Below the pieces are notes generated by a model. It saw only the letters and a program-made list of their open reading frames with translations, did no database searches and was not told the origin of the DNA. DNA of 64,000 bases. Origin: Dictyostelium discoideum (lineage: Eukaryota). Position numbers and translations under genes: made by a program. The stretch is from positions 64,001 to 128,000 of the forward strand of contig CM000151.3 of the NCBI GenBank assembly GCA_000004695.1, read 5' to 3'. Shown here in pieces: positions 8,960 to 64,000 of this stretch (its first letter is position 1; every line of letters begins with the position of its first letter).

Positions 8960-9202
8960 TTTTTAAAATTTAAAATTAGAATTAAAAAAAAAAAAAAAAA
9001 CAACTGTAACAGTAATAAAATTATATAAATTAAAAAAACAAAATTAATAATAAACAATAAATATTAATTATTTACTATTTGTATTTATATTTGGTTTTTT
9101 TTTTTATTATTTTATTATTTTATTATTATTTATTTATTCTCATCATTATATTTATTTATTTGTTTATTTTTTTTTTATTTATTTTTTTTTATGATGATTT
9201 AA

Positions 9203-9345
<143 letters not shown>

Positions 9346-9359
9346 TTTATTTAGATTAA

Positions 9360-9592
9360 TTAATAAAATGGCATTACAGGTGGTGAAGTTGGTGGTTCAA
9401 CATTTCTATACCATTCTGGATTCTCTAAAACAAAGTTACGATAATATAATAAAACAACTAATGGTTGGCCAAGTACGATTGATATCCAGAAAATTACATT
9501 TCCCAAGTTTCTACCATTCATCAAATTTTTAGTTAATGCAATTAAAACCATCTAAAAATAAAAATAAATATAATTAAATAAATGGATTAGTA

Positions 9593-21048: not shown

Positions 21049-22746
<1,698 letters not shown>

Positions 22747-29267: not shown

Positions 29268-29716
29268 TATGTGGCCAAGAGGTAGTGATGTGTAAGTAAA
29301 ATATTATTAAAATTAATTAATTTTTATGTATTAAAAATTAATAACTTTTATAAAGACCAAATAATTATAAATTCTTTCTAGGTTGTTTTTTGAATTATTA
29401 TAAGACAGAGACAGACACAAATACGGGTGATCTCACCACAAATTATAATCATGCTTATTTACGTCATAGGCCAAATCAATTAGGAGAAATAACAACTGAT
29501 TTATTTTATTATAATAGTTTTCAAACTTTTCAATCAATTTGTTCATTTACCAGCAATTATTGTGATAATGATGGCCAGGGTCATTTACAACACAACGTCC
29601 GATATGGTAGAATCATTTTCTCATATAAAGTTTTTAGAAATTTAAATTCTATAAGAGCAGGTGAAGAGTTTAATACAATTGATGTCCTCTATGAAAATAA
29701 TAATTTAAATAGTATA

Positions 29717-29750
<34 letters not shown>

Positions 29751-29866
29751 TTAATAATATAAATAATTATAATAATAACAATAGTAACAATAATAACAAT
29801 AATAATAATAATAATAATATTAATAATAATAATAACAGTATAAATAATATAAATAATAGTATTTAA
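29268..29866 (+). CDS. Hypothetical protein, tentative two-exon model: 29268..29290 and 29356..29866
   Basis: ORF 29390..29866 starts with TTG and has no in-frame ATG. An upstream mini-exon ATGTGGCCAAGAGGTAGTGATGT ends at a gtaagt donor. The acceptor ataaag at 29354-55 gives a phase-consistent product: MWPRGSDVPNNYKFFLGCFLNYYKTETDT... The C-terminus is a long N-rich tail. No domain recognised. Confidence 0.25.
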
Positions 29867-29919
29867 AAATAAATTATTAAAAAATAAATAAAATATTTTA
29901 TTATATAAAAAATGTAAAC

Positions 29920-30410: not shown

Positions 30411-32261
30411 TCAAGAAAATTCCTCTAGAGGTGTATAATTTTTGCCTAAAAAAAAAGATACCAATGTTTTATTATAACTTTTGTTATTGTCGTTGTTGAT
30501 GGTCGTTTGAATTTGTTTTTTTAAATCTTGAATTTTATCTATAATTTGGCTTTTATTTACCATACGATAATTATCATTATATGGAAAATCTAAAATCAAT
30601 TCATTTATTGAAATTGAGTTTGGTGATTGAAATAATGAAATTACATCATCATAATTATCGAATATTTCTATTGATAATTGAATTGAATAAAGTGTTGTAT
30701 TTGGATACTTTTTCATACAATTTAAAATGAATGAAATCCATTTAGCATTTGAATATAAATTCATTTTATCAACAGAAAATTTGATTCTTCTAATTGATGA
30801 ATAATTATAAGTTGTATTTGGTGATGGTGATGATGAAGATGAAACATTTTTATTAAATATATTTGAGAATAAATATTCAATTATCGACGTAGAGAATGAA
30901 GGTCCTATTGAAAAATTATGAATTACTAAAGTTTTAATAGACGAATTAAATAGTAAAGCTGAAAATGAATTTGGAGAAACACTACAATCAATATTTATTA
31001 ATCTTAAAAATTTTATGGTTTTATTATTTTTAATAAGATTATAAAATCCATCTGATATACATTTGATTGTAGTTTCATTAAATTCTAAATTTGAATATTG
31101 ATAACATTTTATTGGATTTAGAGAATATTCACATGGAAAATTTGAAATGGTTAGATTCACAATTGATGTATTATTAGAAAGTGTGACTATCAATTCATTC
31201 CATTCTTTGGAAATATTTTTTGAAAGATTATCTCCATTAAAACATTGTTTAGTTATTTTACATCCATGATAATGTTTGTTTATTAAATGAAACGGTACTT
31301 TAATTGCAAGTGTTATTAAAGTTGGACATCTTTTATTCAAAGATATCAAAGTACCCGGTTGAAATGTACTTGCATGTAATGAAAATGGTTTTGAATAAAG
31401 TTTTAAATGTTTTAATTGAGTTAGATCATTATTAATTAAATGAATAAATTGAAAACTATCAATTTTTAATTCAATTACTTTATTAAAATTATCAAATTTA
31501 CAAAAACAATAAATAAAATGAGGACTATAAAAATATTTATATACAACCAAGTTATTTGATTCCTTTTTCCAAAATTTAAATTCTTCACCTAAAGGTTTAT
31601 TAAAACATACAATTTCAGACAGTAATTGACGATTTGGGATGAGTGGAAATGAGTATTTTGAGTTTTTTAACATATCATCTACATAAATAAAAGATACTCT
31701 TTGAAAATTTTTATATTTTTCTGTATCTGGGTAATTTTTACCATTACTTTTTATAATTATAATTTTATTACTAAAAAAGTCTGAAATTATTTCTTTTTTA
31801 ATTTTAATAATTGACCAATTTTTATTTATAATTAATTTAAAAATTTTTATCAAACTTTTGCTTAAACTATATTTTGAAATTGACATTAACCATATATAAA
31901 TTGGTTTGTTTTTTAAATATCTACTTGGTTTAATACTTTTCATTGAATTATTAATCTTTGAAATATTTCCAAAATCTTCTAAAAATTGATTTTGATACAA
32001 TTCTTTTCTAAACCATTTGTCCATAATTATATCTTCACCATGATCTTTTATTATTTCATATGAAATGAGTGGGGAAATAAAAAAATACCATTCTTTTGAA
32101 ACCAAACATAAATTTAAAATTTCATCTTGGTAACAATAAAATTCCAATTTTGAATAATAAAAATTTTTATTAATATATTTTTTATTTTTTGGAATTAATA
32201 AATAATTTATTAATAATATTATTATATCTTTTTCAATTATTTTTGTTAATTTTTTATTCAT
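30411..32261 (-). CDS. Member 1 of a Dictyostelium-specific family: an F-box-like N-terminus followed by leucine-rich-repeat-like units
   Basis: 616-aa intronless ORF. The N-terminus is ..QDEILNLCLVSKEWYFFISPLI (F-box-like). The central region has repeated L-x-x-L-x-L/N-x-x-I units. It is about 85% identical to the paralogue at 33475..35331. Confidence 0.7.
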   Translation of the reverse strand: MNKKLTKIIEKDIIILLINYLLIPKNKKYINKNFYYSKLEFYCYQDEILNLCLVSKEWYFFISPLISYEIIKDHGEDIIMDKWFRKELYQNQFLEDFGNISKINNSMKSIKPSRYLKNKPIYIWLMSISKYSLSKSLIKIFKLIINKNWSIIKIKKEIISDFFSNKIIIIKSNGKNYPDTEKYKNFQRVSFIYVDDMLKNSKYSFPLIPNRQLLSEIVCFNKPLGEEFKFWKKESNNLVVYKYFYSPHFIYCFCKFDNFNKVIELKIDSFQFIHLINNDLTQLKHLKLYSKPFSLHASTFQPGTLISLNKRCPTLITLAIKVPFHLINKHYHGCKITKQCFNGDNLSKNISKEWNELIVTLSNNTSIVNLTISNFPCEYSLNPIKCYQYSNLEFNETTIKCISDGFYNLIKNNKTIKFLRLINIDCSVSPNSFSALLFNSSIKTLVIHNFSIGPSFSTSIIEYLFSNIFNKNVSSSSSPSPNTTYNYSSIRRIKFSVDKMNLYSNAKWISFILNCMKKYPNTTLYSIQLSIEIFDNYDDVISLFQSPNSISINELILDFPYNDNYRMVNKSQIIDKIQDLKKQIQTTINNDNNKSYNKTLVSFFLGKNYTPLEEFS

Positions 32262-32770: not shown

Positions 32771-33474
32771 AAGGCAAGACAAGGGTAAAAAAAAAAAAAC
32801 TTTAAGTTATAATTTGTAAGGGTGTAACATTCCCAATACAAGAAGTTAATTATTTATATATATCTATATAGGGGTTTTTATAGTATTATGTGCTATAGCA
32901 TTTTAATTCTTATTTTCTAAAATTAATATTAATTATTTCTCTGAATAATTAATTCTTTTTAAATTAATTTCTCATTAATTTCTCATTAATTTTTTTTCAA
33001 TATTTTAAAACTATTTATACTAAAATCTATTAACCTCTTTGGTCTTATATTTGAAAAATCTTAAAAATTAAAATAAATAAAATAATTTAATTTAAATATA
33101 ATTAATTATTATATTATGGAAATGTTTAAACATTACATTTAATATAATTTTAATTAAATTAACCCATTTGAAATTTCAATAGAATAAACATTAATTAATA
33201 GAATATTTTAATGTTATAACAAGATATTTTTGACCTCTGGTTACAGTAGGTGTAAAAATTTCAGCATTAAAGTGGTGAAAAGTTATTATTATGCCTTTAA
33301 GAAACTGTAAAAGATATTGTTTGCTAAGGTTAAAAATTAAAAAATTATGCTCCTAGACACAAAGTAATTTATTATAATTTTATATATAATTATAATTTAA
33401 TATATATAATTATAATTTTATCAATTTAGATTTTAAAAATATATTTTTTTTTTTTCTATTTATTTGTTAAGCAA

Positions 33475-35331
33475 TCAAGAAAATTCCTCTAAGGGTGGAT
33501 AATTTTTACCAAAATAAAAAGATACTAATGTTTTATTTTCACTTTTGTTATTGTTGATGGTAGCTTGAATTTGTTTTTTTAAATCTTGAATTTTATCTAT
33601 AATTTGTCTTTTATTTACTATACGATAATAATCATGATATGGAAAATCTAAAATCAATTCATTTATTGAGATTGAGTTTGGTGATTGAAATAATGAAATT
33701 ACATCATCATAATTATCAAATATATCTATTGGTAATTGAATTGAATAAAGTGTTGTATTTGGATACTTTTTCATACAATTTAAAATGAAAGAAATCCATT
33801 TAATATTTGAATATAAATCAGTTTTATCAACAGAAAATTTGATTCTTCTAATTGATGAATAATTATACATTATATTTAATGATGATGAAGATGATGATGA
33901 TGAGGATAATGAATCATTTTTAGAAAATATATCAGAAAATAAATATTCAATTATTGATGTAGAGAATGAAGGTCCTATTGAAAAATTATTTATAACTAAT
34001 GTTTTAATCGTTGAATTAAATAGTAAAGCTGAAAATGAATTTGGAGAAACACTACAATCAATATTTATTAATCTTAAAAATTTAATGGTTTTATTATTTT
34101 TAATAAGATTATAAAATCCATCTGATATACATTTGATTGTATTTTCATTTAATTCTAAATTTGAATATTCATAACATTTTATTGGGTCTAGAAAGTATTC
34201 GCATGGAAAATTTGAAATGGTTAGATTCACAATTGATGTATTATTAGAAAGTGTGACTATCAATTCATTCCATTCTTTGGAAATATTTTTTGAAAGATTA
34301 TCTCCATTAAAACATTGTTTAGTTATTTTACATCCATGATAATGTTTGTTTATTAAATGAAATGGTACCTGAATTGCAAGTGTTTTTAAAGTTGGACATC
34401 TTTTATTCAAAGATATCAAAGCACCTGGTTGTAATGTACTTGCATGTAATGAAGAAGGACAAGAATAAAGTTTTAAATGTTTTAATTGAGTTAGATCATT
34501 ATTAACTAAATGACTAAATTGTAAACCATCAATTTTTAATTCAATTACTTTATTAAAATTATCAAATTTACAAAAACAATATATAAATTGGAGACTGTAA
34601 AAATATTTATCAATAAACGAATTACATGGTAACTTTTTCCAAAACTTTAATTCTACACCTAAAGGTTTATTAAGACATGCAATTTCAGACAGTAATTGAC
34701 GATTTGGAATGGGTGGAAATGTGCATGTTGCTTCATATTTCATTTCATTTACACAAATGAAAGATACTCTTTTAAAATTGTTATATTTTTCTGTATCTGG
34801 ATAATTTTTACCATAACTTTTTATAATTATAATATTATTACTAAAAAAGTCTGAAATTATTTCTTTTTTAATTTTAATAATTGACCAATTTTTATTTATA
34901 ATTAATTTAAAAATTTTATTCAAACTTTGGCTTAAACTATATTTTGAAATTGACAATACTGATATATAAATTGGTTCGTTTTTTAAATATCTACTTGGCC
35001 CAATGCTTTCAATTGAATTATTTATGTTTGAAACATTTTTAAATTGTTCTATATATTGATTTTGATACAATTCTTTTCTAAACCATTTGTCCATAATTAT
35101 ATCTTCACCATGATCTTTTATTATTTCATATGAAATGAGTGGGGAAATTAAAAAATACCATTCTTTTGAAACCAAACATAAATTTAAAACTTCATCTTGG
35201 TAATAATATAATCCCAATTTTGAATAATAAAAATTTTTATTTACATATTTTTTATTTTTTGGAATTAAAAAATAATTTATTAATAAAATTATTATATCTT
35301 TTTCAATTAATTTTGTTAATTTTTTATTCAT
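33475..35331 (-). CDS. Member 2 of the same F-box/LRR-like family, a tandem paralogue of 30411..32261
   Basis: 618-aa intronless ORF, collinear with the paralogue and carrying small indels (poly-S). Fragments of this gene recur at 36020..36238 and 41233..42290. Confidence 0.7.
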   Translation of the reverse strand: MNKKLTKLIEKDIIILLINYFLIPKNKKYVNKNFYYSKLGLYYYQDEVLNLCLVSKEWYFLISPLISYEIIKDHGEDIIMDKWFRKELYQNQYIEQFKNVSNINNSIESIGPSRYLKNEPIYISVLSISKYSLSQSLNKIFKLIINKNWSIIKIKKEIISDFFSNNIIIIKSYGKNYPDTEKYNNFKRVSFICVNEMKYEATCTFPPIPNRQLLSEIACLNKPLGVELKFWKKLPCNSFIDKYFYSLQFIYCFCKFDNFNKVIELKIDGLQFSHLVNNDLTQLKHLKLYSCPSSLHASTLQPGALISLNKRCPTLKTLAIQVPFHLINKHYHGCKITKQCFNGDNLSKNISKEWNELIVTLSNNTSIVNLTISNFPCEYFLDPIKCYEYSNLELNENTIKCISDGFYNLIKNNKTIKFLRLINIDCSVSPNSFSALLFNSTIKTLVINNFSIGPSFSTSIIEYLFSDIFSKNDSLSSSSSSSSSLNIMYNYSSIRRIKFSVDKTDLYSNIKWISFILNCMKKYPNTTLYSIQLPIDIFDNYDDVISLFQSPNSISINELILDFPYHDYYRIVNKRQIIDKIQDLKKQIQATINNNKSENKTLVSFYFGKNYPPLEEFS

Positions 35332-36019: not shown

Positions 36020-36238
36020 TTATTTTCTTCGATTAAATAAACAAATTGAATATATTTTCCTATTACAATTAAAATTATTAATCAAGAAAAGTGGATAATT
36101 TTTACCAAAATAAAAAGATACAAATGTTTTATTATCTTTTTTGTTATTGTTGTTGATGGTCGTTTGAATTTGTTTTTTTAAATCTTGAATTTTATCTATA
36201 ATTTGTCTTTGATTTGCTAGATCGAACCATTGCATCAT
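36020..36238 (-). pseudogene. 3'-terminal fragment (last ~60 codons) of an F-box/LRR-like family gene
   Basis: QRQIIDKIQDLKKQIQTTINNNNKKDNKTFVSFYFGKNYPLFL matches the C-termini of the 616- and 618-aa paralogues. Unrelated sequence lies upstream. Confidence 0.6.
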
Positions 36239-36546
36239 ATCAAAATTTTGCTCGGAATTGATAAAATTATTATGTGAACAGACACGAAATATGTTCGTTA
36301 TACAATTTAAAAAAATAATGCAGTTTCTACTATTATTATTATTATTATCATTACCAATGTTATTTAAATAACATAATAATCCTTTAAAAATATTATCATT
36401 TTTTGGAATTTCATCTAACCCGATTGATTTCTCACCAAAATCAGTGTTATTTAATGATGTTTCTAATGATGTTGATGATGGTGAGTTTGATTTTTTTAAT
36501 TCTAATAGATATTTGATGATTTTATTTGAACCTGTCTCGATTGAAT

Positions 36547-36951
36547 TTAAAAGATCTGTTTTTGTTGGTAATTGAATTCATTTATAAATAATTTATAAAT
36601 TTCTAAATTCTTTGATTGTATTATTGCAGTTGATACATAAATTGGTGAAGAGTAATAATACCTTTGAATTTTGAAAAAGTTTCTATAAAATTTGAAATCA
36701 TTTTTAATTATTTCAAACAATTTCTTTAAATAAATTAAATCTTTACGCCAACTAGATTGATCAGACTCTTTACGCCAACAAGTTTCACCAAATTCTAAAT
36801 ATCTACAATTTCTATAAACTTTTTCTTTTAAAATACTAATTTGATTTGAATCTATTAGTTTAGTTATTGACGATACTGAATCGTAACTAAATGAATATTG
36901 GTTATACATAAATGAGAATATCTTTTTATAAATTGCTTTATTTCTAAACAA
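36547..36951 (-). pseudogene. Fragment of a second duplicated gene family; a near-identical copy lies at 42300..42668
   Basis: ORF KLFRNKAIYKKIFSFMYNQYSFSYDSVSSITKLIDSNQISILKEKVYRNCRYLEFGETCWRKESDQSSWRKDL... starts at TTG. The frame is open upstream only to an in-frame TAA and has no canonical donor. An adjacent upstream ORF encodes ..EIIERIKIVKKRKREYEEEHERKENTNSFNKIIK*. Both lie inside the duplicated block. Confidence 0.35.
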
Positions 36952-37360
36952 TTTCCAAAATAATATTTCAATTGGTTCTATATTATCTGTAATTGTTTAT
37001 TTTATGATTTTATTGAATGAATTAGTATTTTCTTTTCGTTCATGTTCTTCTTCATATTCTCTTTTTCTTTTTTTTACAATTTTAATCCTTTCAATTATTT
37101 CTTGTTTATTTAAGTGATTTATTTCTATACAATATTTCTTTAATTGATTTTAAATTCTTTTTCTCTAATTCACAATTATTATCATTATCTTTATCATCTT
37201 ATTAATTAAAGATGATAAAAATATATAAATTATTTTTCATTGTTGTGGTGGTGGGGGAAATTAAAAAATAAAAAAAAAAAAATATAAAAAAATATAAAAA
37301 AAAAAAAATAAAATAAAACAAATAAAAAACATTTTTATGGTGTAACGGATTTTATTTAGT

Positions 37361-37391
<31 letters not shown>

Positions 37392-37439
37392 TTTTTTTTT
37401 TTTACTATTTCTTTGAAATTTCGTTGAATATTATTTTTA

Positions 37440-37600
37440 AACGAATTCTAATGACTACATAACCCCTGTAAGCGGTTAGCAGCCCCTTGTAATCCTTACA
37501 ACCAGTGTAGCCCACAAATCCGGCTATTCGTCTTACAGTTCCTATTAGCCGCTTACAGGGTTACTTAGTCATTTTGCGCGTTGGCGGTGTAATTAATATT
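37440..37600. other. GC-rich island with a ~20-bp imperfect inverted repeat (CCCCTGTAAGCGGTTAGCAG ... CCTATTAGCCGCTTACAGGG). Candidate structured ncRNA or MITE-like element.
   Basis: About 50% GC within a region that is more than 80% AT. The inverted repeat was read directly. It contains CCCACAA, which resembles the Dictyostelium upstream sequence element (DUSE) of ncRNA genes, and CCTTACAACCAG, which resembles the class-I RNA motif CCTTACAGCAA. A second copy with a deletion lies at 43200..43290. Confidence 0.4.
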
Positions 37601-38028
37601 TATTTATATTTTTATTATTCGCTGGAAAAAATTCATTATTTTATTAGATATTTTATGATACGTAATTTCTCATATATCTAATAAAATATTGAATTTTCTA
37701 AAATTTTTTTTTCCAGCGAATAATAAAAAAAAAAAAACTGTTTTGGTTAACCATGGGGTGATTTATTGTAATTTTTTAATAATTTTAGTTCTGTTTTTTT
37801 TTTTTAAATGGAGATATCAGAGAGATTATTATGATATTTTGAATAATTGGATCATAGTAATAAACAATATTTTTAATTTTTTTCTTTTTTTTTTTCTTTT
37901 CATTCTTTTTTTTTTTCTTTTCATTCTTTTTTTTTTAGTACTTAATCTTTATTTTTTTCATCTTTCAAAATAAAAAAAAATATTTATATAAATTTTAACT
38001 TTAAATTAAATAAATAAATAAATTTTAG

Positions 38029-38452
38029 AATGACTGAAGAAGTGCATAAATTGAAAATTACAATATTTACTGATAAAGGGAGATCAACAATAAGTGGTGG
38101 AGGTAAGTTAATTAGAATTATTAATTTATAAATATTTAATTTTGGTTTATATATTAAAAAATGTAACATTTAATTTCATTCTTCTGGCTTTTTTAAAAAT
38201 ATAGATTTTCCTCTACCTGTATTACCTTATCCTGCACCATATACTTTTAGATTATTTGATTACGAAATTGAAGGCCCAAATTTAACCAATAAAGAATTTA
38301 AAGTAAAAACAGGTAAAATTGAATACAAAGGAGAAGAATTTGATATTCCTTCATCATCTAAGGGCTCATGGAGAGGAGTAGATGAAGAAATGGATTTAAT
38401 CTATGTTACAATATATCCAAGTAGACAACCAAAAAAAGTTTTTCATTATTAG
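38029..38452 (+). CDS. Small hypothetical protein (about 107 aa) with two exons, 38029..38101 and 38205..38452. Copy 1 of two.
   Basis: ATG..GGTGGAG then a gtaagt donor, and an aaatatag acceptor, phase 1. Product: MTEEVHKLKITIFTDKGRSTISGG-DFPLPVLPYPAPYTFRLFDYEIEGPNLTNKEFKVKTGKIEYKGEEFDIPSSSKGSWRGVDEEMDLIYVTIYPSRQPKKVFHY. Copy 2 at 43780..44202 is about 93% identical at the protein level, and its splice sites are conserved. Confidence 0.55.
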
Positions 38453-38757
38453 ATCTTAAAAACAGATCTGAAACAATTAAAACAAAAATAAAAAATTTTA
38501 AAATTTTATATAAAAAAATAATTATGATTAAAAAAAAAATATGTGTGGAAAAAAAAAAAAATTAAAAATTAAAAATATATTTGTTTATGGTGTTATGTTT
38601 TTTGGTAAGGTTTAAAGTGATCAAAAAATTATCATTCAAACTTGTAAAAAAACAATAATAATAAATAATAATTTAAAAACAAAATAAAGATTAATTTGCA
38701 TTATCCAATTTTTTTTTTTTTTTTTTTTTTTTTGATTTTGTTTAATTTGATTCGATT

Positions 38758-38792
38758 CTATTTGATTTGATTTGATTTGATTTGATTTGATT

Positions 38793-38800
<8 letters not shown>
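38758..38800. repeat. (GATTT)n pentanucleotide repeat followed by poly-T. Also present in copy 2 at about 44815..44862.
   Basis: Read directly. Confidence 0.9.
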
Positions 38801-38844
<44 letters not shown>

Positions 38845-40272
38845 CATTATAATCTTTTTTCCAATTATTTCCATTATATATAAATATATTGGAAAATCTT
38901 CCATTTTCCATTTTCCGCCATAATATGGATTTTTTTTTTCAGGAAATTGGCCAACACTATTGTATACTATATTCATAACAATCTGGAAGGTTGATGGCTA
39001 TATCAAGAGGATCATCAGAAGTCCATGGGAAGGGAATTTATTGGTTTCGGAAACATCATATGGATGAATGATACATTTGAAATTTAAAACATTATTATTA
39101 ATTGAGGCATTTTTATTAGATCGAGTTAAAATTTTATTGTGGAATTTTCATAATTAATGTGGAATTTTCCACTTTTTTTTTTTTTTTTAGAAATTTTTCA
39201 CCCCTACCCCTTTTCAATTTTATTTGAAAAATAGAATGTTGATATTTGATTTGATAATTTTCAAATTATTTATTAGTAATTGTAATTAATTGAAATAGAA
39301 ACCTTATTTTATTTTATTTTTTTTAAATATAATTACTGATAGTTTTGTACTGTAATTGGTAACTCTTTATTATTGTTTTGAAAAATGGATTATTAATACG
39401 ATTCAATTCTTCTTAATACTTATTATGACCTTTAATTTTAATTTCTTTAAAAAATATGTTTCTTGATTTTTGTTCTTGTTTTGTTGAAATATTATTTATT
39501 AAATTTTTAAATTCTTTAATAAATTCATCAACTAATTCCTTATCATTATATAATGTAAAAAAAAAAAAAAAACTCTGTTTATGACAACAAAACAGTCACA
39601 ATTTTTTTAACTATAAAACAAAAATTATTATCTTATTTTAAATTTTTACTTTATTTTTTTTCCATGCGGGTTCAAAAAAAAAGCTTTTTTTTTTTTTTTT
39701 TTTTTTAGTAAACAAAATTTTTTTTTTTTTTTTTTTTTTTTTTCGCACCCCTTCATTTACTTATTTTTCTTGTTGATATCATTAAAATCAATAGTTTTTT
39801 TCAAAATGTCAAAAAGAATTATTAATTTCAATTGGTTCATATAGATTGGGAAATTAATGAATCATTTAATAAAGACAATTATTAACTTTATTTATTTTAA
39901 ATTGTAGATATATTCTCAAATCCAAAAACAGGTATGGGTCATTCAAATGATGCTCTTTCACTTTTTATAAAAGCTTAAAGAGAGATTGGTTATTATCCAA
40001 ATATTGATAAAGCAATTTTCACAACTCCAGTCACAACTTTAGCTAAAACCACTATTGATTTAACTGCCCATGTTATAACTATATTAATGTGGTGTTGAGA
40101 TCATTACAAACTATGAAGTATTTCTAGGAAAGAGATGAAGGTACTAACAAGATCTTACTTTTCAAAAAGTTGATTTAACATTGACTCTTTAATAAATTGA
40201 ACATCTTCATTTGTTTCAAATAAGACAAGATCAAAAAATACTACTTTAATAACATTATTGGGATCCAAATAT

Positions 40273-41064
40273 TTACCAACGTGGCATTTTTTTAAATCTT
40301 GGGTGATGAAATTTCATTTTAGAGAGTTTATCGATTGTATTGGTTACTAAAGCAATAAAATCTTGATTTTTCCAATCATTGTGAGAAGCTGGTGATACAT
40401 ATGGCATCATTAAAGCTGGCTTGGAGTTCCAAGTTCCAACCTATTATAAATATATATATTAATAATTGTTTTGATTTATACCACCATTTTTAACTTTGAA
40501 ATAAAAATTACCATAAATACTTACATGTGCACCCAAACCCCAAAGTTCTCTCCACTTTTCACACTCTTTGATCAATTCGTTTTCTGGTTTAATATTACAT
40601 TTTGAGAATTTTAATACGAAAACATGTCCTTCCAAAATACCAAAAAAGACACAACATAACCATACTCTTCCATGTTCTCCTCCTTTTAAATCATATAATA
40701 AAACACATGCCTTAACTAATTTCAATGGGGTATCTATAAAATAATGTAATTTTTTGATATTAATGTTGACCCAAAACCATGAAGATTGAACTACTTGTAT
40801 ATACATTCTTTTTACATCAAGTAAAGGAATTTCTGATTTTCTTCTAGAGTAATACATCTTCATCAATACAGAGTATAAAACTTTTGGTAATTGTTGATCT
40901 GAATATTTAAAAACCTTTGAGCCATATAAAATACGTTTACAGTGAGTTGGTGGTATAATATCATTATAATCGTTCGTTATTGTGGAATTTTGTAAATTTG
41001 AGGTTGATGTTAAAGTATCTGGTTTCTGAAGAGTTGTAGTAGTTGATTCATTTGATAATTCCAA
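40273..41064 (-). pseudogene. 5'-truncated copy of a duplicated gene (PD-(D/E)xK-like family). Exons 41064..40525 and 40440..40273 are retained.
   Basis: Encodes ..ESTTTTLQKPDTLTSTSNLQ..KRMYIQVVQSSWFWVNINIKKLHYFIDTPLKLVKACVLLYDLKGGEHGRVWLCCVFFGILEGHVFVLKFSKCNIKPENELIKECEKWRELWGLGAH, then a gtaagt donor, then VGTWNSKPALMMPYVSPASHNDWKNQDF..PRW*. The upstream part of the gene is replaced at 41080 by the duplicated A/B block. Confidence 0.5.
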
Positions 41065-41232
41065 TTTGGGAGCTTGAGCAGACTATGCTCCTAGACACAA
41101 AGTAATTTATTATAGTTTTATATATAATTATAATTTTATATATATAATTATAATTTTATATATATAATTATAATTTTATCAATTTAGATATTAAAAATAT
41201 ATTTTTTTTTTTTCTATTTATTTGTTAAGCAA

Positions 41233-42290
41233 TCAAGAAAATTCCTCTAAGGGTGGATAATTTTTACCAAAATAAAAAGATACTAATGTTTTATTTTCAC
41301 TTTTGTTATTGTTGATGGTAGCTTGAATTTGTTTTTTTAAATCTTGAATTTTATCTATAATTTGTCTTTTATTTACTATGCGATAATAATCATGATATGG
41401 AAAATCTAAAATCAATTCATTTATTTAAATTGAGTTTGGTGATTGAAATAATGAAATTACATCATCATAATTATCAAATATATCTATTGGTAATTGAATT
41501 GAATAAAGTGTTGTATTTGGATACTTTTTCATACAATTTAAAATGAATGAAATGAAATATGAAGCAACATGCACATTTCACCCCATTCCAAATCGTCAAT
41601 TACTGTCTGAAATTGCATGTCTTAATAAACCTTTAGGTGTAGAATTAAAGTTTTGGAAAAAGTTACCATGTAATTCGTTTATTGATAAATATTTTTACAG
41701 TCTCCAATTTATATATTGTTTTTGTAAATTTGATAATTTTAATAAAGTAATTGAATTAAAAATTGATGGTTTACAATTTAGTCATTTAGTTAATAATGAT
41801 CTAACTCAATTAAAACATTTAAAACTTTATTCTTGTCCTTCTTCATTACATGCAAGTACATTACAACCAGGTGCTTTGATATCTTTGAATAAAAGATGTC
41901 CAACTTTAAAAACACTTGCAATTCAGGTACCATTTCATTTAATAAACAAACATTATCATGGATGTAAAATAACTAAACAATGTTTTAATGGAGATAATCT
42001 TTCAAAAAATATTTCCAAAGAATGGAATGAATTGATAGTCACACTTTCTAATAATACATCAATTGTGAATCTAACCATTTCAAATTTTCCATGCGAATAT
42101 TTTCTAGACCCAATAAAATGTTATCAATATTCAAATTTAGAATTTAATGAAAATACAATCAAATGTATATCAGATGGATTTTATAATCTTATTAAAAATA
42201 ATAAATCCATAAAATTTTTAAGATTAATAAATATTGATTGTAGTGTTTCTCCAAATTCATTTTCAGCTTTACTATTTAATTCAACGATTA
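41233..42290. pseudogene. Rearranged fragments of the F-box/LRR-like gene 33475..35331. The 3' end lies on the minus strand (41233..41540), abutted to an internal segment on the plus strand (41543..42290).
   Basis: ORF 41233..41415 (-) equals the last 60 aa of the 618-aa gene. ORF 41543..42385 (+) equals its central 270 aa. The two pieces are in opposite orientation, so there is an inversion breakpoint near 41540. The 3' flank (41085..41232) is the same as 33345..33475. Confidence 0.7.
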
Positions 42291-42299
42291 AAACATTAG

Positions 42300-43090
42300 T
42301 TATAAATAATTTTCTAAATTCTTTGATTGTATTATTGCAGTTGATACATAAATTGGTGAAGAGTAATAATACCTTTGAATTTTGAAAAAGTTTCTATAAA
42401 ATTTGAAATCATTTTTAATTATTTCAAATAATTTCTTTAAATAAATTAAAATTAAATCTTTACGCCAACTAGATTGATCAGACTCTTTACGCCAACAAGT
42501 TTCACCAAATTCTAAATATCTACAATTTCTATAAACTTTTTCTTTTAAAATACTAATTTGATTTGAATCTATTAGTTTAGTTATTGACGATACTGAATCG
42601 TAACTAAATGAATATTGGTTATACATAAATGAGAATATCTTTTTATAAATTGCTTTATTTCTAAACAATTTCCAAAATAATATTTCGATTGGTTCTATAT
42701 TATCTGTAATTGTTTATTTTATGATTTTATTGAATGAATTAGTATTTTCTTTTCGTTCATGTTCTTCTTCATATTCTCTTTTTCTTTTTTTTACAATTTT
42801 AATCCTTTCAATTATTTCTTGTTTATTTAAGTGATTTATTTCTATACAATATGATTTTGCAATTTCTTTAATTGATTTTAAATTCTTTTTCTCTAATTCA
42901 CAATTATTATCATTATCTTTATCATCTTATTAATTAAAGATGATAAAAATAATTTAAATATATAAATTATTTTTCATTGTTGTGGTGGTGGGGGAAATTA
43001 AAAAATAAAAAAAAAAAAAAAAATATAAAAAAAAAAATAAAAAAAAAAAAACAAATAAAAAACATTTTTGTTGTGTAACGGATTTTATTT

Positions 43091-43137
<47 letters not shown>

Positions 43138-44727
43138 TTTTTACTATTTTATTAAATATTTATTTCTTTGTTTGAATATTATTTTTAAACGAATTCAAAT
43201 GACTACATAACCCCTGTAGCCCACAAATCCGGCTATTCGTCTTACAGGGCCTATTAGCCGCTTACAGGGGTTGTGTAATTAATATTTATTTATATTTTTA
43301 TTATGGGCTAATTCTTTTTTTATTATTTAATGATAATTTATATTAAAATATGATATATTATTAATTAATATTTAATATTAATTTGTTAAATATTTTATTA
43401 AATTATAATCTCTTTATAAAAAGTGAGAAATTACTGTCATAAAATATCTAATAAAAAAATAAATTTTCTAAAAATTTTTTTTCCAGCGAATAATAAAAAA
43501 AAAAAAACTATTTTGGTTAACCATGGGGTGATTTATTGTAATTTTTTAATAATTTTAGTTCTGTTTTTTTTTTTTAAATAGAGATATCAGAGATTATTAT
43601 GATATTTTGAATAATTGGATCATAGTAATAAACAATATTTTTAATTTTTTTCTTTTTTTTTTTTCTTTTCATTCTTTTTTTTTTAGTACTTAATCTTTAT
43701 TTTTTTCATCTTTCAAAATAAAAAAAAAATATTTATATAAATTTTAACTTTAAATTAAAATAAATAAATAAATTTTAAAATGACTGAAAAAATGCATGAA
43801 TTGAAAATTACAATATTTACTGATAAAGGGAGATCAACAATAAGTGGTATAGGTAAGTTAATTAGAATTATTAATTTATAAATATTTAATTTTGGTTTTT
43901 TTATTAAAAAATGTAACATTTAATTTCATTCTTCTGGCTTTTTTAAAAATATAGATTTTCCTCTACCTGTATTACCTTATCCTGCTCCATATACTTTTAG
44001 ATTATATGGATACAAAATTGAAGGCCCAAATTTAACCAATAAAGAATTTAAAGTAAAAACAGGTAAAATTGAATACAAAGGAGAAGAATTTGATATTCCT
44101 CCATCATCTAAGGGCTCATGGAGAGGAGTAGATGAAGAAATGGATTTAACCTATGTTACAATATATCCAAGTAGACAACCAAAAAAAGTTTTTCATTATT
44201 AGATCTTAAAAACAGATCTGAAACAATTAAAACAAAAATAAAAAATTTTAAAATTTTTTCATAATTGAATTGATATAAAAAAATAATTATTATTAAAAAA
44301 AAAATATGTGTGGAAAAAAAAAAAATTAAAAATAAAAAATATATTTGTTTATGGTGTTATGTTTTTTGGTAAGGTTTAAAGTGATCAAAAAATTATCATT
44401 CAAACTTGTATACCAGTGTTCGACCTTTTTCCACTTTTGGAAAAAAAGGGTGTTTTTTTTAATTTCCCTTCCATTCCATGTTTTTTTTAAAAACTTCCAT
44501 ATTAATATAATATTTTTTCCATTTTTTTTTTTTCAATTAACCAGGGAAGGCCGAAATTTTTTTTTTTATTTTTTTTTTGTAATATCTTAATAAACGTTTA
44601 TTAATTAAAAAAAAAAAAAAAAAAAAAAGTAAAATGATAAATAATATTAATAAAAAAACAATAATAATAAATAATAATTTAAAAACAAAATAAAGATTAA
44701 TTTGCATTATCCAATTTTATTTATTTA

Positions 44728-44776
<49 letters not shown>

Positions 44777-44858
44777 ATTTTGTTTAATTTGATTCGATTC
44801 TATTTTATTTTATTTGATTTGATTTGATTTGATTTGATTTGATTTGATTTGATTTTTT

Positions 44859-44899
<41 letters not shown>

Positions 44900-47800
44900 C
44901 ATTATAATCTTTTTTCCAATTATTTCCATTATATATAAATATATTGGAAAATCTTCCATTTTCCATTTTCCACCATAATTTGGATTTTTTTTTTTCCGGA
45001 AATTGGCCAACACTATTGTATACTATATTCATAACAATCTGGAAGGTTGATGGCTATATCAAGAGGATCATCAGAAGTCCATGGGAAGGGAATTTATTGG
45101 TTTCAGAAACATCATATGGATGAATGATACATTTGAAATTTAAAATATTATTATTAATTGAGGCATTTTTATTAGATTGAGTAAAAATTTTATTGTGGAA
45201 TTTTCATAATTAAAATTATTTTTTTTTTTTTTTTTAGAAATTTTTCACCTTTACATTTTCCCTATTTTTTCTTTTTTTCACCCCTGCCCCTTTTCAATTA
45301 AAAAAAAATAGTGAAAAAAAAAGTAAATTAATAAATTATAAAAAAACAAATAAAAATAAATAAATTATATTATTAATTTTATTTGAAAAATAGAATGTTG
45401 ATATTTGGTTTGATAATTTTCAAATTATTTATTAGTAATTGTAATAAATTGAAATAGAAACCTTGATTAAGAGGTACCTCATTTTATTTTATTTTTTTTA
45501 AATATAATTACTGATAGTTTTGTACTGTAATTGGTAACTCTTTATTATTGTTTTGAAAAATGGATTATTAATATGATTCTTCTAAATACTTATTATGACC
45601 TTTAATTTTAATTTCTTTAAAAAATATGTTTCTTGATTTTTGTTCTTGTTTTGTTGAAATATTATTTATTAAATTTTTAAATTCTTTAATAAATTCATCA
45701 ACTAATTCCTTGTCATAATATAATGTAAAAAAAAAAAAAAAAAAAAACTCTGTTTCTGACAACAAAACAGTCACAATTTTTTTAACTAAAAAACAAAAAT
45801 TATTATCTTATTTTAAATTTTTATTTTATTTTTTTTCTGTGTGGGTGCAAAAAAAAGCTTTTTTTTTTTTTTTTTTTTTTTTTTTGGTAAAACAAAATTT
45901 TTTTTTTTTTTTTTTTTTTTTCGCACCCCTTCATTTACTTATTTTTCTTGTTGATATCATTAAAATCAATAGTTTTTTTCAAAATGTCAAAAAGAATTAT
46001 TAATTTCAATTGGTTCATATAGATTGGGAAATTAATGAATCATTTAATAAAGACAATTATTATTAACTTTATTTATTTTAAATTGTAGATATATTCTCAA
46101 ATCCAAAAACAGGTATGGGTCATTCAAATGATGCTCTTTCACTTTTTATAAAAGCTTAAAGAGAGATTGGTTATTATCCAAATATTGATAAAGCAATTTT
46201 CACAACTACAGTCACAACTTTAGCTAAAACCACTATTGATTTAATATTCAATGAAAACAGTTGGAATCAAAATAAATCAAAACCAATTTCAATTTATAAT
46301 TTAAATGGTAATTCAATTGAATTGAAATTATTTTATAGTGTATTAGAAAACAGTTTTAAATGTAATGAAATCCAATTCGATGAATGGATTGAATTAGTTA
46401 CAAAATCAAATGGAAAATCTTCAAAAAGATATTCAACATTCCACATTCTCAATAATCAAAATTAATGAATCAATCATTTTAAATAATATTAATAATAACA
46501 ATAACTAAAATAATAAAAAATAAAAAATATCATAATCAATAGTTGGCAAACGTACACTATTAACCAATGCTTAAGTACCAGGTTGTGTTGAAAATGATCC
46601 CAAAGAATATATACCTATCACCTTGGTTTGTAATTGGAAATGAATAATCTGTATATTCTCAAATAAACAATTAATGGTGTCGTACTATCAACTGGTTTCA
46701 AATACAATACCACATTACAATCTTGTTCAGAAAGATATTATTATTTTTATATATTTTTTAAATGTTATAAATTAATTTTTCTTTGAAAAAAAAAAAAAAC
46801 AAAACAAAATAAAAAGTACTTTTTTTTTTAAATTTAATCAAATTAATGGAAAATGTCCAAACCAAATTACAAGAATTTAAAACAAATTAATAAACTATTT
46901 TTATTTGTATAATGAATTTGAAAGTTGATTTTATTTTATTTTATCATTTGATAGATGATATTTTGGTGAATAATAATGAAAATTGTGATCCAACTTTTTA
47001 ACTGCCCATGTTATAACTATATTAATGTTGTGTTGAGATCATTACAAACTATGAAGTATTTCTAGGAAAGAGATGAAGGTACTAACAAGATCTTACTTTT
47101 CAAAAAGTTGATTTAACATTGACTCTTTAATAAATTGAACATCTTCATTTGTTTCAAATAAAACAAGATCAAAAAATACTACTTAATAACATTATTGGAA
47201 TCCAAATATTTAGCAACGTGACATTTTTTTAAATCTTGGTGATGAAATTTCATTTTAGAGAGTTTATCGATTGTATTGGTTACTAAAGCAATAAAATCTT
47301 GATTTTTCCAATCTTTGTCAGAAGCTGGTGACACATATGGCATCATTAAAGCTGGCTTGGAGTTCCAAGTTCCAACCTATTATAAATAGATATTAATAAT
47401 AGTTTTGATTAATACCATTTTTAACTTTGAAATAAAAAAATAACCATAAATACTTACATGTGCATCCAAACCCCAAAGTTCTCTCCACTTTTCACACTCT
47501 TTGATCAATTCATTTTCTGGTGAAATATTACATCTTGAGAATTTTAAAACGAAAACATGTCCTTCTAAAACACCAGCGGAGGCACAACATAACCATACTC
47601 TTCCATGTGCTCCTCCTTTTAAATCATATAATAAAACACATGCCTTAACTAATTTCAATGGGGTATCGATAAAATAAAGTAATTTTTTGATTTTAATGTT
47701 AACCCAAAACCATGAAGATTGAACTACTTGTATATACATTCTTTTTCCATCAAGTAAAGGGATTTCTGATTTTCTTTTAGAGTAATACATCTTAATCAAT

Positions 47801-48010
47801 ACAGAGTATAAAACTTTTGGTAATTGTTGATCTGAATATTTATAAACCTTAGAGCCATATAAAATACGTTTATAGGGAGTTGGTGGTAAAATATCATCAT
47901 TATCGTTCGTTTTTGTGGAATCTTGTAAATTTGAGGTTGATGTTTAAGTATCTGGTTTCTGAAGAGTGGTAGTAGATTCATTTGTTAATCCCAATTTGGA
48001 AGCTTGGGCA
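42300..48010. repeat. Segmental duplication, copy 2, comprising units D and E. It includes copy-2-specific segments at about 44400..44630 and 46210..47000.
   Basis: Collinear and near-identical with 36593..41080. Contains the second GC-rich island (43200..43290), the second copy of the small gene (43780..44202), the (GATTT)n repeat, and the longer copy of the PD-(D/E)xK-like gene. Confidence 0.8.
43780..44202 (+). CDS. Small hypothetical two-exon protein, copy 2 (paralogue of 38029..38452)
   Basis: MTEKMHELKITIFTDKGRSTISGIG / DFPLPVLPYPAPYTFRLYGYKIEGPNLTNKEFKVKTGKIEYKGEEFDIPPSSKGSWRGVDEEMDLTYVTIYPSRQPKKVFHY. The intron positions match copy 1. Substitutions are mostly non-synonymous-tolerant, so both copies appear intact. 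Confidence 0.55.
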
Positions 48011-48972
48011 GATCCATCTGAAATAGGTAACCAACATACCCTCCAGCTCTCATATGTTGTTGAAATACCATAAACATCTTCCTGACCATACATTTCAGCG
48101 ATACTTAACACGTAATTCAACGTTTGGCCATGAAGCTTATCATTCTCCATAATGTTTTTACTTGGCTTTTTAACTTCAATAATACCTATAGGTAACCCAA
48201 TTGAATTTGCAAGTACCATAATATCAGGTTTCAAATCACTAACACCAAAATAGCTTGAACAATATGCATTTATACCACATGATTTGATAATGTCATTAAC
48301 TGCGGTTCTAACATAAAAAGCAATGTCGGATTCTGTGGAGTAATGGAGGTAGCTTCCGTTTCCAAGAGACCCCCATAATAAATTGTGGCATGGAATTGGT
48401 TTTATGTCTGCTAAAATTTCAAAACTTTTCGATACCAAAGTTGCAGGTTGATGATTTTTCCCAACAGATGGATTTGACATTGAGCCTGACTTCTCACCCA
48501 AAGGAGGTAAAGCATTAGCAAAAATATCCTTCTTTGGTTCTGTATTATGTAAATTGTATATTAATTAGTTAAAAAGTTTTAAAAATTAATTTATTATGAT
48601 TTAACCTACCATACAAAATATTCTTCTTTGGTTCTGTATTATGTAAATTGTATAATTAATCAGTTAAAAAGTTTTAAAAATTAATTTATTAATTATGATT
48701 TTAAAAGGGATAAACCTACCATATAAAACATAAATATGAGTTGGAATATTGTTTTCATTTAATTTGGTTTCGATATCCAATTCTTTTTCCCCCAATCCAT
48801 CACCTACTGGTTGTTTATCGAAGATTGATAAATCTTTTGTTTTATATTGTACTCCATTATCGCTAATATATTCTGCTATTATTTTTAAAACATCATATAT
48901 TCTGTTAACTGACTCAAATTTAATTTCATCTTTTTTATTATTTAAATAAACAATACAACTAAAAGAAACCAT
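47110..48972 (-). pseudogene. Longer copy of the duplicated PD-(D/E)xK-like gene. It carries an in-frame nonsense codon and indels.
   Basis: Exon 1 (48972..~48718) encodes MVSFSCIVYLNNKKDEIKFESVNRIYDVLKIIAEYISDNG..., ending at a gtagg donor. It continues ..EKSGSMSNPSVGKNHQPATL..DLKPDIMVLANSIGLPIGIIEVKKPSKNIMEND.. (D...E-x-K, resembling a restriction-endonuclease-like fold). There is a TAA at 47944-46 where copy 1 has TTA (Leu). There is a frame change between 47981 and 47799, and single-base deletions in the last exon relative to copy 1. Confidence 0.5.
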
Positions 48973-63305: not shown

Positions 63306-63342
63306 ATGATGACACATAATAATAATAATAATAATATCACTG

Positions 63343-63407
<65 letters not shown>

Positions 63408-64000
63408 TTAAATAATAATAATAATAATAATATTACTGATGATAATAATGATATACTTTCAATTATAAATAATAATAATGAAAATAGTAAATTATCAATT
63501 TTATTAATTGGTGAAATATTAAGATATTGTTGGAATGATAAATATAGTGTATTTGCATGGAAGGTGTCATTATCATTAGTATCGAAAGGTGTGTTTAAGA
63601 TTGTTTCAAGTTTTGCAAATAGTATTAATTTAGTATCAAGTGATTTATATCAACATCTTAGAAATCAATGGTGTATATTTAAATCAATAGATTCGCTAAC
63701 GACATCATTTAAATTTTTGGAAGGATTCGTTGACGAATTTAATTTCAATTTATTAGAAAAGAAACAAATTTATTTACCAAAAGATTGTTCAATTGATAAT
63801 ATTGACAGAGACAAAATTCAGGATCCCTTATCATTATTATCAAGTTTAACCATTAGGGGACCCGCCGCATCATATGTGAAAAAAGAGAAAGTTGTATTAC
63901 AATTACTATTATCAAGTAACACAAGTTCATTTAAACATTTTTCAATGATTTCACATAAGAATACACTGTTGAAGAATATTTTCAGTTTTCTAGAACAGTG
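63306..64000 (+). CDS. Hypothetical protein, 5' portion only; the ORF runs off the window end
   Basis: ATGATGACACAT at 63306. The frame is open for about 230 codons to the window edge. After (AAT)n-encoded poly-N tracts, the region is non-repetitive: LLIGEILRYCWNDKYSVFAWKVSLSLVSKGVFKIVSSFANSINLVSSDLYQHLRNQW... (F-box-like?). Not in the ORF track because it lacks a stop. Confidence 0.4.

Follow-up and report, generated by a model that had tools for sequence, protein, structure and literature searches.

Genes and Duplicated Blocks at the Locus

The window, by which we mean the whole stretch of 64,000 nucleotides of Dictyostelium discoideum DNA that was analyzed, contains two collinear blocks, B1 and B2, that are preceded on the left by a pair of related genes, A1 and A2. 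The genes and blocks are as follows.

30411–32261, minus strand: gene A1, 616 amino acids, AX4 DDB_G0271362 (list of open reading frames; P0033 maps here)
33475–35331, minus strand: gene A2, 618 amino acids, uncharacterized, donor of the filler between the blocks (list of open reading frames, self-BLAST)
36020–36951, minus strand: gene whose product starts with "MFRNK", AX4 DDB_G0271328; P0026 matches at 100% over 36553–36023; spans the left edge of B1
36595–41082, no strand: block B1, the left copy (self-BLAST, global alignment, repeat search)
38030–38452, plus strand: cad1, intact two-exon Dicty_CAD gene, 106 amino acids, in B1
39878–40063, plus strand: remnant of a polyketide synthase 3' end, copy 1, its 3' half lost with a 757-bp deletion in B1
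40155–41082, minus strand: DUF5898 gene, copy 1, lacking the 5' half, cut at 41082 and with its own +1 frameshift near 40303
42300–42668, minus strand: "MFRNK" gene in a copy that is cut on the 3' side, AX4 DDB_G0271322; it ends at join J3
42306–48012, no strand: block B2, the right copy (self-BLAST, global alignment; syntenic from 46056 rightwards with the single-copy locus of other strains)
43780–44202, plus strand: cad2, intact Dicty_CAD gene, 106 amino acids, in B2
46056–46483, plus strand: polyketide synthase remnant, copy 2, from the last exon and interrupted by an in-frame stop
47093–48972, minus strand: DUF5898 gene, copy 2, full length, with a TAA codon at 47946–47944 and a –1 frameshift near 47183

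The collinearity of B1 with B2 was found both by self-BLAST and by a repeat search of the window. The BLAST match is made up of 6–7 pieces with 93.5–94% identity, gap columns being counted, and E = 0 for all matches, so that chance is not an issue. Global alignment of the two blocks gives 4406 aligned columns with 187 substitutions, an identity of 95.8%, and 37 gap runs that total 1383 bp, the largest of which (757 and 242 bp) are both absent from B1. The segmental duplication with collinear blocks that had been proposed in a first-pass annotation of this DNA is confirmed, but the term near-identical that was used there is somewhat generous in view of this identity and these gaps.

The blocks are arranged head to tail, and this structure and the polarity of the flanks are directly observed: the original left flank is with B1, and the original right flank is with B2. 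To the right of B2, the window from 59087 down to 46056 is collinear with two diverged strains, in both of which a single intact DUF5898 gene lies beside the polyketide synthase. To the left of B1, the "MFRNK" gene runs on, as it does in the L006 paralogue (98.9% identity between L006 11404–11582 and window 36505–36327) and in P0030; in B2 the gene ends at J3. The authentic left flank is marked by the passage of this gene across the left edge of B1. The breakpoints lie inside two different genes, of the DDB_G0271328 type on the left and DUF5898 on the right, and at each of them one copy of the gene is cut and the other is uninterrupted. In the first-pass annotation, the insertion of one copy was held to have truncated a gene; what is found instead is a head-to-tail duplication with breakpoints in two genes, the cut copies being DDB_G0271322 in B2 and the 5'-cut DUF5898 gene in B1. 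The duplication, of 4.5–5.7 kb on chromosome 2 of D. discoideum AX4, or of a strain that cannot be told apart from it, is real and of an ordinary kind, and it has left one additional intact small gene of the adhesion type, besides several gene copies that are broken.

The second Dicty_CAD gene is the only complete extra gene that the duplication has given. Differences that change an amino acid outnumber silent ones in three of three pairs of cad copies, in counts that are too small for significance. The left 2.9 kb, comprising the cad and "MFRNK" cassette, occurs a third time ~200 kb away, with a retrotransposon integrase gene nearby. Duplicated genes are already clustered in this region, with A1 and A2, three cad–"MFRNK" cassettes, and the decaying polyketide synthase. 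tRNA genes, at which Dictyostelium retroelements commonly land, are absent from the window. Pfam returned nothing for the "MFRNK" gene, and the tail of DDB_G0271328 (36091–36219) goes back to the 3' end of an A-type gene, of which it is an old relic. A translated search of the block did not find the body of the polyketide synthase, and just the last-exon remnant is present. The breakpoint of its loss is common to both copies (39878 and 46056), which places the duplication later than the loss. Absent from the first-pass annotation were the intact Dicty_CAD gene and the polyketide synthase remnant of each copy, as well as A1 as the tandem partner of A2. Strains differ at the locus about five-fold more than in the adjoining flank; some have lost the polyketide synthase or have it cut down, and the small adhesion-type genes change mostly at amino acid sites.

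The gene truncated at the right breakpoint encodes a fusion of a PD-(D/E)xK nuclease, with a restriction-endonuclease-like core and the conserved D … (D/E)xK motif, to a kinase-like (DUF5898) part that matches the family model and has a kinase-like fold with the HxD motif of the catalytic loop. The nonsense codon of copy 2 corresponds to TTA in copy 1, and the AX4 model DDB_G0271368 covers just the portion ahead of this stop. Previously, copy 2 had been described as carrying a nonsense codon and frameshifts, and copy 1 as cut off; the nonsense codon and the cut were both found, and the frameshifts of copy 2 are reduced to one. The description of two decaying nuclease-like paralogues stands, with a nonsense codon and a frameshift in copy 2 and a frameshift and the cut in copy 1. 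Both copies are pseudogenes, and an intact DUF5898 gene, which other strains have, is probably absent from the laboratory lineage.

The Filler and Its Joins

The 1.2 kb between B1 and B2 consists of two copies derived from A2, one direct (470 bp) and one inverted (768 bp). The source segments, the filler pieces, and the three joins are as follows.

33346–33795, minus strand: source segment 1, the 3' flank of A2 (127 bp, A2-specific) and its last ~107 codons (self-BLAST; repeat search, family D4)
33982–34749, minus strand: source segment 2, the middle of A2, about codons 195–450 (self-BLAST; repeat search, pair I1)
41082–41084, no strand: join J1, where B1 ends and the copied 3' flank of A2 begins; blunt, with a single unassigned base
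41084–41553, minus strand: filler piece a4, same-strand copy of 33346–33795, 98.1% identity (self-BLAST)
41546–41553, no strand: join J2, 8-bp overlap in which both templates match, the direct template at 7 of 8 positions
41546–42313, plus strand: filler piece a5, inverted copy of 33982–34749, 768 nucleotides, 99.1% identity (pair I1)
42306–42313, no strand: join J3, between a5 and the start of B2, 3–4 bp shared (TTT/TTTT)

Rearranged pieces of the upstream gene had been noted at this place, and they are present with small shifts in coordinates; the inverted-repeat junction is likewise there, 41546–42313 pairing with 33982–34749. The filler differs from A2 by 0.9–1.6% and from A1 and outgroup paralogues by 9–15%, and it contains 127 bp of the A2-specific flank. 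Such a comparison identifies A2 directly as the source of both pieces. The differences between the filler and A2 lie partly on the A2 side and partly on the filler side, and divergence at the ends of the fragments is no higher than in the remainder. The templates sit 1.3–3.2 kb to the left of the block and were used in direct and inverted orientation, as in templated insertions. A1 is the older tandem partner of A2, from which it differs by ~7% in substitutions (BLAST counts) or by ~11% when the flanks are included, and is not the source of the filler. Pfam contains no family for the A genes. When the contig index was queried for exact matches to the A2 protein and to the AX4 proteins P0026 and P0027, there were none, and the ACTFIT assembly, which is near-identical to AX4, served for comparison in place of the AX4 chromosome. 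Together with an ATG created at J2, a5 forms an open reading frame of 280 codons (41543–42385).

Short shared bases are directly seen at two of the joins. The microhomology is 7/8 bp at J2 and 3–4 bp at J3, with none at J1, and must be read against a background of 79% A+T that raises the chance expectation; for DNA of this composition, we estimate the chance of such a shared run to be roughly 0.2% at J2 and 1–2% at J3. Neither self-BLAST nor comparison of the joins detected similarity of the sequence around 36595 to that around 41082 or 48012. Non-allelic homologous recombination, or unequal crossing-over, was considered and rejected because the breakpoints are without long homologous direct repeats. 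The sole flanking direct repeat is 129 bp long (36091–36219 and 41253–41378) and lies away from the joins. Illegitimate (non-homologous) recombination, which had been suggested at the outset, is retained as the general class of the event.

Divergence along the Copies and Allele Lineages

Classes of divergence vary along the structure, in the blocks and in the filler. Between B1 and B2, divergence rises from 0.4% in the left 700 bp through about 2% in the middle to 7.1% over 40574–41082. The filler and the left 700 bp, which are ~0.4–1.4% from their sources, together have 17 differences in about 1940 bp (0.9%), and the middle of the block has about 52 differences in 2730 bp (1.9%). The duplication had been called recent, a term that suits the filler and the left 700 bp but not the right end, which is 7% diverged and of another allele lineage.

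The comparison of alleles was rooted with L007, a more distant D. cf. discoideum locus, in the neighborhood of which the DUF5898 gene alone aligns; the neighbors differ, and L007 was therefore used as a root only. Over 40574–41082, B1 groups with L001 at six sites, and the groupings of B2 with L002, B1 with B2, and L001 with L002 have one site each. Over 40155–40573, four sites group L001 with L002, one groups B1 with B2, and one groups B1 with L001. B1 and P0001 have in common a one-codon insertion and several residues. According to this comparison (6–9 sites, two outgroup strains), the right 500 bp of B1 is of a different and older DUF5898 allele lineage than B2. The presence of the other lineage at the right end of B1 suggests either that two homologues were joined in a heterozygous cell or that there was later conversion by another allele. 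A broader proposal, which we regard as quite doubtful, is that the tandem copies preserve two old nuclease-kinase allele lineages in an unstable and unusually diverse stretch, that the template switching took place between homologues in a heterozygous zygote of the sexual cycle, and that the diversity is kept by selection, e.g., in self/non-self recognition or genetic conflict.

Origin of the Structure and Comparison with Known Systems

Our preferred interpretation, which we consider probable, is that a tandem duplication arose in the laboratory-strain lineage of D. discoideum and that its join was bridged by copies of A2 through a template-switching copying process. The duplicated segment, of ~5.7 kb, would have extended from inside the "MFRNK" gene through the Dicty_CAD gene and the polyketide synthase remnant to the middle of the DUF5898 gene. 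Most likely, copying during replication or repair synthesis would have included three template switches within about 8 kb. (i) At the breakpoint in the DUF5898 gene, synthesis would have moved back to the 3' flank of A2. (ii) It would then have switched to the opposite strand, about 1 kb further. (iii) A last switch would have led to the start of the segment, which was copied again. Two homologues may have been joined in a heterozygous cell in the process, or one copy may have been converted later by another allele. Deletions in B1 (757 and 242 bp), many changes in homopolymer length, and the disabling mutations in both DUF5898 copies would have followed. Both the serial nature of the template switching and its occurrence as a single event are what we infer from this arrangement. 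Divergence in the filler and the left 700 bp is about half of that in the middle of the block, a pattern that is fitted equally well by an older duplication with later repair of the join.

Such a history in two steps is possible, although we consider it rather unlikely. An old, plain tandem duplication would have been followed much later by a break near the join, which was repaired by copying A2 in direct orientation, A2 in inverted orientation, and the initial ~700 bp of B1, with re-annealing in B2 afterwards. J2, J3, and perhaps J1 would on this reading date from the repair. The distance of the filler and the left 700 bp from their sources (0.4–1.4%), as compared with about 2% to 7% in the remaining block, is as expected from this sequence of events, which also explains the sharp tract of low divergence by the join without recourse to a homologue. 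However, one event more is required than in the one-step model, the grouping of the right 500 bp of B1 with the allele of another strain is left unexplained, and the rise from 0.9 to 1.9% is only modestly significant and may reflect a difference in rate between coding-like sequence and A+T-rich spacer.

It is improbable that the A-derived pieces at the join have survived from an ancestral pair of A genes in divergent orientation, such as other strains have between the A cluster and the polyketide synthase, and were homogenized by gene conversion from A2. In the orientation of the window, the order in ACTFIW and ACTFIR is A(–), A(+), polyketide synthase(+), DUF5898(–), and the order in the window, a4(–), a5(+), synthase remnant(+), DUF5898(–), is identical, but a chance match of order and orientation is expected in about 1 case in 8. 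Conversion would have had to extend exactly to both ends of the fragments, including the 127 bp of A2-specific flank, and to leave no diverged edges. In addition, the part of the "MFRNK" gene beyond J3 is present in B1 and L006 and absent from B2, so that B1 is not a copy of a B2 that lay beside an old remnant.

That the block is a transposon, inserted beside itself or moved as a unit, is very improbable: the recurrence of the left 2.9 kb close to a retrotransposon integrase gene and the nuclease-fold gene within the block might point to a mobile element, but terminal repeats and a target-site duplication are absent at 36595, 41082, 42306, and 48012, the genes of the block are host genes, with none for a transposase, reverse transcriptase, or integrase among them, other strains have the nuclease-kinase gene once and in syntenic position, and the ends of the block lie inside genes. 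An artefact of assembly, be it the collapse or expansion of a repeat or a chimeric join, had also been raised; nothing in its favor was found, and it has hardly any probability left: a second deposited assembly (L003, GCA_054883475.1), assumed to be independent of the reference from its different contig structure and homopolymer lengths, contains the same 23.5 kb (window 23452–46954) with five substitutions and 68 homopolymer indel bases, of which none falls between 39720 and 43037, so that all three joins are identical. The copies are themselves separated by 187 substitutions and 37 indels and have different disabling mutations, and reference gene models are present for both, the AX4 proteins DDB_G0271328, DDB_G0271322, DDB_G0271368, and DDB_G0271362 mapping to the window as expected.

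The doubt about the reference is thereby settled: the odd inverted junction is real, and a flag for mis-assembly is not needed. Three gene readings are corrected, DDB_G0271322 being DDB_G0271328 in a truncated copy, DDB_G0271368 the front portion of a pseudogene, and the 280-codon open reading frame a fragment of A2. The locus provides a cleanly resolved natural junction of a complex duplication, with direct and inverted templated filler, in Dictyostelium and bears on the question of which repair or replication pathways make gene duplicates in this organism. Nothing here will surprise specialists. Literature searches by gene identifiers found no paper on these genes, and none that clearly matched came up in a search on the new strain assemblies.

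Complex tandem duplications with templated insertions at the breakpoints are attributed to fork stalling and template switching or to microhomology-mediated break-induced replication, and complex duplications of this FoSTeS/MMBIR type have reportedly been described. The present structure resembles them in its head-to-tail arrangement, in a join that contains direct and inverted segments from nearby (within 8 kb), in the 2–8 bp shared at two of the three joins, and in breakpoints without long homology. Unlike the human cases, it is an old, fixed event in an amoeba and not a de novo copy-number variant; one join is blunt, the mosaic divergence points to a second haplotype, and the mechanism is proposed from sequence. 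In duplication–inverted triplication–duplication structures, which are also said to occur, an inverted segment similarly lies between direct copies, and a new inverted-repeat pair is created, as with 33982–34749 and 41546–42313 here. The inverted 768 bp is, however, an extra copy from outside the block and does not represent an inverted triplication within it, with no pre-existing inverted repeats detected at the breakpoints. Tandem duplication that expands gene families is reportedly a general feature of the D. discoideum genome. As compared with that known growth of families, the structure of the join and the mosaic of allele lineages are, to our knowledge, apparently undescribed, but the duplication itself lies in the same species and on the same chromosome, within a region that was already a cluster of duplicated genes.

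Blocks and gene content

In the window, which has a G+C content of 21%, the left block at 36595-41082 (B1) is collinear with the right block at 42306-48012 (B2), as found by self-BLAST and a repeat search in agreement with the first-pass annotation. The coordinates proposed there hold to within a few bases, with the exception of the right end of the inverted piece between the blocks, which was placed at 42290 and was found at 42313. Global alignment of B1 and B2 gives 4406 aligned columns with 187 substitutions and 37 gap runs totaling 1383 bp, nearly all absent from B1, where the two longest lie at 38644 (242 bp) and 40058 (757 bp). Away from the duplication, self-comparison of the window is dominated by long AAT-type simple repeats (poly-Asn/coding-like) that match each other, at 2400-2610, 9150-9360, 21360-21540, 22410-22630, 29690-29900, and 63310-63500. 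Each block comprises five parts.

Contents of each block, from left to right
First, minus strand: exon 1 of the small 'MFRNK...' gene, which crosses the left edge of B1
Second, plus strand: intact two-exon Dicty_CAD gene of 106 aa (cad1, 38030-38452; cad2, 43780-44202)
Third: about 1.5 kb without a clear gene
Fourth, plus strand: last-exon remnant of a polyketide synthase gene
Fifth, minus strand: DUF5898 gene (copy 1, 40155-41082, retaining nothing upstream of 41082; copy 2, full length, 48972 to about 47093)

Within the third part, a short remnant resembles the 3' terminus of a gene that encodes 660 aa at the paralogous locus. AX4 gene DDB_G0271328 matches the window at 100% across its second exon, the end of DDB_G0271322 coincides with the stop of the ORF at 42300, DDB_G0271368 is the front of the nuclease-like gene as far as its nonsense codon, and DDB_G0271362 corresponds by protein mapping to A1, one of two tandem genes left of B1. 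These matches to proteins of AX4 chromosome 2 identify the window as that chromosome or its equivalent in an indistinguishable strain. The cad-'MFRNK' cassette has a third copy, with about 93% identity, some 200 kb distant (L006, GCA_054883475.1 contig 1, 317464-339376; AX4 DDB_G0271414); its neighbors are a gene for a retrotransposon integrase and F-box-like genes distantly related to the A genes. The three paralogous 106-aa Dicty_CAD genes (cad1, cad2, and L006 8995-9417) differ mostly by amino acid changes, with pN/pS of 1.8-3.4 on counts too small for significance.

The DUF5898 product is predicted to consist of two domains, one with a PD-(D/E)xK nuclease fold and, after it, a small kinase domain resembling Bud32/RIO, because Asp191, Glu207, and Lys209 of a D...ExK motif are invariant in 15 homologues, AlphaFold2 models the intact homologue P0001 with a mean pLDDT of 80, and DUF5898 is listed under the Pfam kinase clan (PMC9758233); the residues and the model bear out the earlier PD-(D/E)xK-like label. 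Both copies are disabled in the AX4-type sequence, the gene being intact (540 aa) in other strains, and the homologue search returned no further AX4 protein among its matches. In copy 2, TAA (47946-47944) stands in place of the Leu codon of copy 1 and every homologue, and the frame shifts by -1 near 47183; copy 1, besides being cut, shifts by +1 near 40303, so that the earlier description of two decaying paralogues stands. A 94-bp tandem duplication (48521-48596 and 48615-48691), spanning the junction of intron 1 with exon 2, produces a repeated mini-exon, 'EPKKNILY EPKKDIF', that is present in strain ACTFIR (P0002) and absent in strain ACTFIW (P0001).

Polarity of the duplication

Two outgroup strains, both labeled D. 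discoideum (GCA_054859355.1, with loci L001, L004, and L005, and GCA_054859385.1, with locus L002), differ from the window flanks by about 3.7% substitutions, which far exceeds the usual within-species diversity. Each has a single intact DUF5898 gene, preceded in window orientation by a divergent A-gene pair and the polyketide synthase and followed by SpoU-methylase, Kelch, and methyltransferase genes. Collinearity with the window runs from 59087 down to 46056, and B2 therefore keeps the original right flank. At the left end, the B1 'MFRNK' gene extends outward past 36595 and that of B2 ends at the join; the extension is also present in L006 (11404-11582, equivalent to window 36505-36327 at 98.9%) and in the more distant paralogue P0030. 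With the original left flank on B1 and the original right flank on B2, the comparison argues for a head-to-tail duplication and contradicts the proposal that one copy was inserted into, and truncated, a gene. The 757 bp missing from B1 is kept in the outgroups and is thus a deletion in B1. The scar of polyketide synthase loss is the same in both blocks (39878 in B1, 46056 in B2), which places the duplication after that loss, in the laboratory-strain lineage.

The synthase gene itself, of about 10 kb, is intact in one outgroup strain (3099 aa; L001 11676-21430), cut to 1175 aa in the second (L002 12318-16685), and survives in the window as a remnant of its last exon that contains a stop codon (46056-46483; 39878-40063). 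L001 and L002 differ by ~1% substitutions to one side of DUF5898, ~5% within it, and 2-3% in the synthase, a step that places the start of a diverged haplotype block at the DUF5898 gene. Compared with its paralogue, the B1 'MFRNK' gene is itself truncated at about 36327 (window 36020-36330), and its tail derives from an A-type 3' end, of which 129 bp remain (36091-36219, about 91% identical to A2, the right-hand A gene); together these indicate an earlier rearrangement and the loss of a third A copy.

The first-pass annotation had raised assembly collapse or expansion. An independently deposited 3.6-Mb contig (L003, GCA_054883475.1) agrees with window 23452-46954 except for five substitutions and 68 bases of indels, which all fall in homopolymer runs, and has zero differences over 39720-43037, which includes all three joins. 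B1 and B2 are moreover too divergent, with different disabling mutations, for collapse or expansion, and these comparisons argue firmly that the structure is not an assembly artefact. The automatic annotation of L003 fuses the 'MFRNK' gene and A2 into one 820-aa model (L003 10001-13435) and places the start of a 271-aa DUF5898 model within the A2-derived DNA (L003 5466-6661); both models are probably artefacts of the rearranged locus.

Uneven divergence between the blocks

After poorly aligning low-complexity stretches were set aside, B1 and B2 differed by three substitutions (0.4%) in the left ~700 bp, by about 2% in the middle, by 2.6% over 40059-40573, and by 7.1% over 40574-41082. In the last 500 bp, B2 is nearer to strain L002 (3.4%) than to B1. 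The gene from D. cf. discoideum (L007) served as the root for the DUF5898 allele sites. Over 40155-40573, four sites group L001 with L002, one B1 with B2, and one B1 with L001, matching a simple in-place duplication; over 40574-41082, six group B1 with L001 and one each B2 with L002, B1 with B2, and L001 with L002, the last two being the groupings that an in-place duplication would give. At the protein level, B1 and P0001 have in common a one-codon insertion and several residues. The rooted sites, the proximity of B2 to L002, and the features shared with P0001 point to another, older allele lineage as the source of the right end of B1. The event may have taken place in a heterozygous cell and linked two different homologues, in which case the uneven divergence would be an allelic difference at birth, or one copy may later have acquired sequence from another allele by conversion or recombination. 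Less likely, but plausible, is a history in two steps, in which the duplication is older and a later repair laid down the DNA between the blocks and re-copied the first 700 bp.

Filler, joins, and mechanism

The 1.2 kb between B1 and B2 (the filler) consists of two copies of parts of A2.

Filler pieces and joins (J1-J3), from left to right
41082/41084: J1, blunt, with one base between that is assigned to neither side
41084-41553: direct piece, in the same orientation as its source 33346-33795, 98.1% identity
J2: inverted copy from 41546, direct copy traceable to 41553 with one mismatch, an 8-bp overlap
41546-42313: inverted piece of 768 nt, source 33982-34749, 99.1% identity, confirming the inverted-repeat junction proposed earlier
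J3: TTT or TTTT common to the inverted copy and B2

A1 (30411-32261) and A2 (33475-35331), of 616 and 618 aa, are intact tandem minus-strand genes of no Pfam family, ~7-11% apart, a distance equal to that separating each from the A genes of other strains. Those strains carry the pair head to head (divergent), not in tandem as in the window, which implies an inversion or independent duplications.

The filler contains 127 bp of A2 3' flank that is not present in A1, and it diverges by 0.9-1.6% from A2 as against 9-15% from A1 and the outgroup A genes, pointing clearly to A2 itself as the source. Of the 14 differences between filler and A2, some changed in A2 and others in the filler, and the filler middle is at least as diverged as its ends. 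An old remnant later converted is disfavored by the A2-specific flank, the low divergence from A2, the split changes, and the undiverged ends.

All templates lie within about 8 kb, and the inverted piece begins ~1 kb beyond where the direct piece ends and heads back toward it, the layout expected of serial template switching. Such switching is known to give junctions of this kind in other organisms. From this precedent and the junction anatomy, we infer that the direct and inverted A2 copies would have been laid down by such switching in the course of replication or repair synthesis.

The region was already a patchwork of duplicated and decaying genes. To it the duplication added one extra complete gene (the second Dicty_CAD), an 'MFRNK' gene lacking its 3' part (DDB_G0271322 in the annotation), a DUF5898 pseudogene lacking its 5' part, a 280-codon ORF (41543-42385) that is the A2 middle only with a start codon created at J2, and two kinds of repeat that could drive further rearrangement: a 768-bp inverted pair separated by 6.8 kb and direct repeats on the kilobase scale. 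The parts most worth further attention are the allele-lineage mosaic and the nuclease-kinase gene. A literature search by gene identifiers found no paper mentioning these genes, and the duplication seems to be undescribed so far, though nothing in it is unexpected: it belongs to the known class of complex tandem duplications with templated junction insertions.
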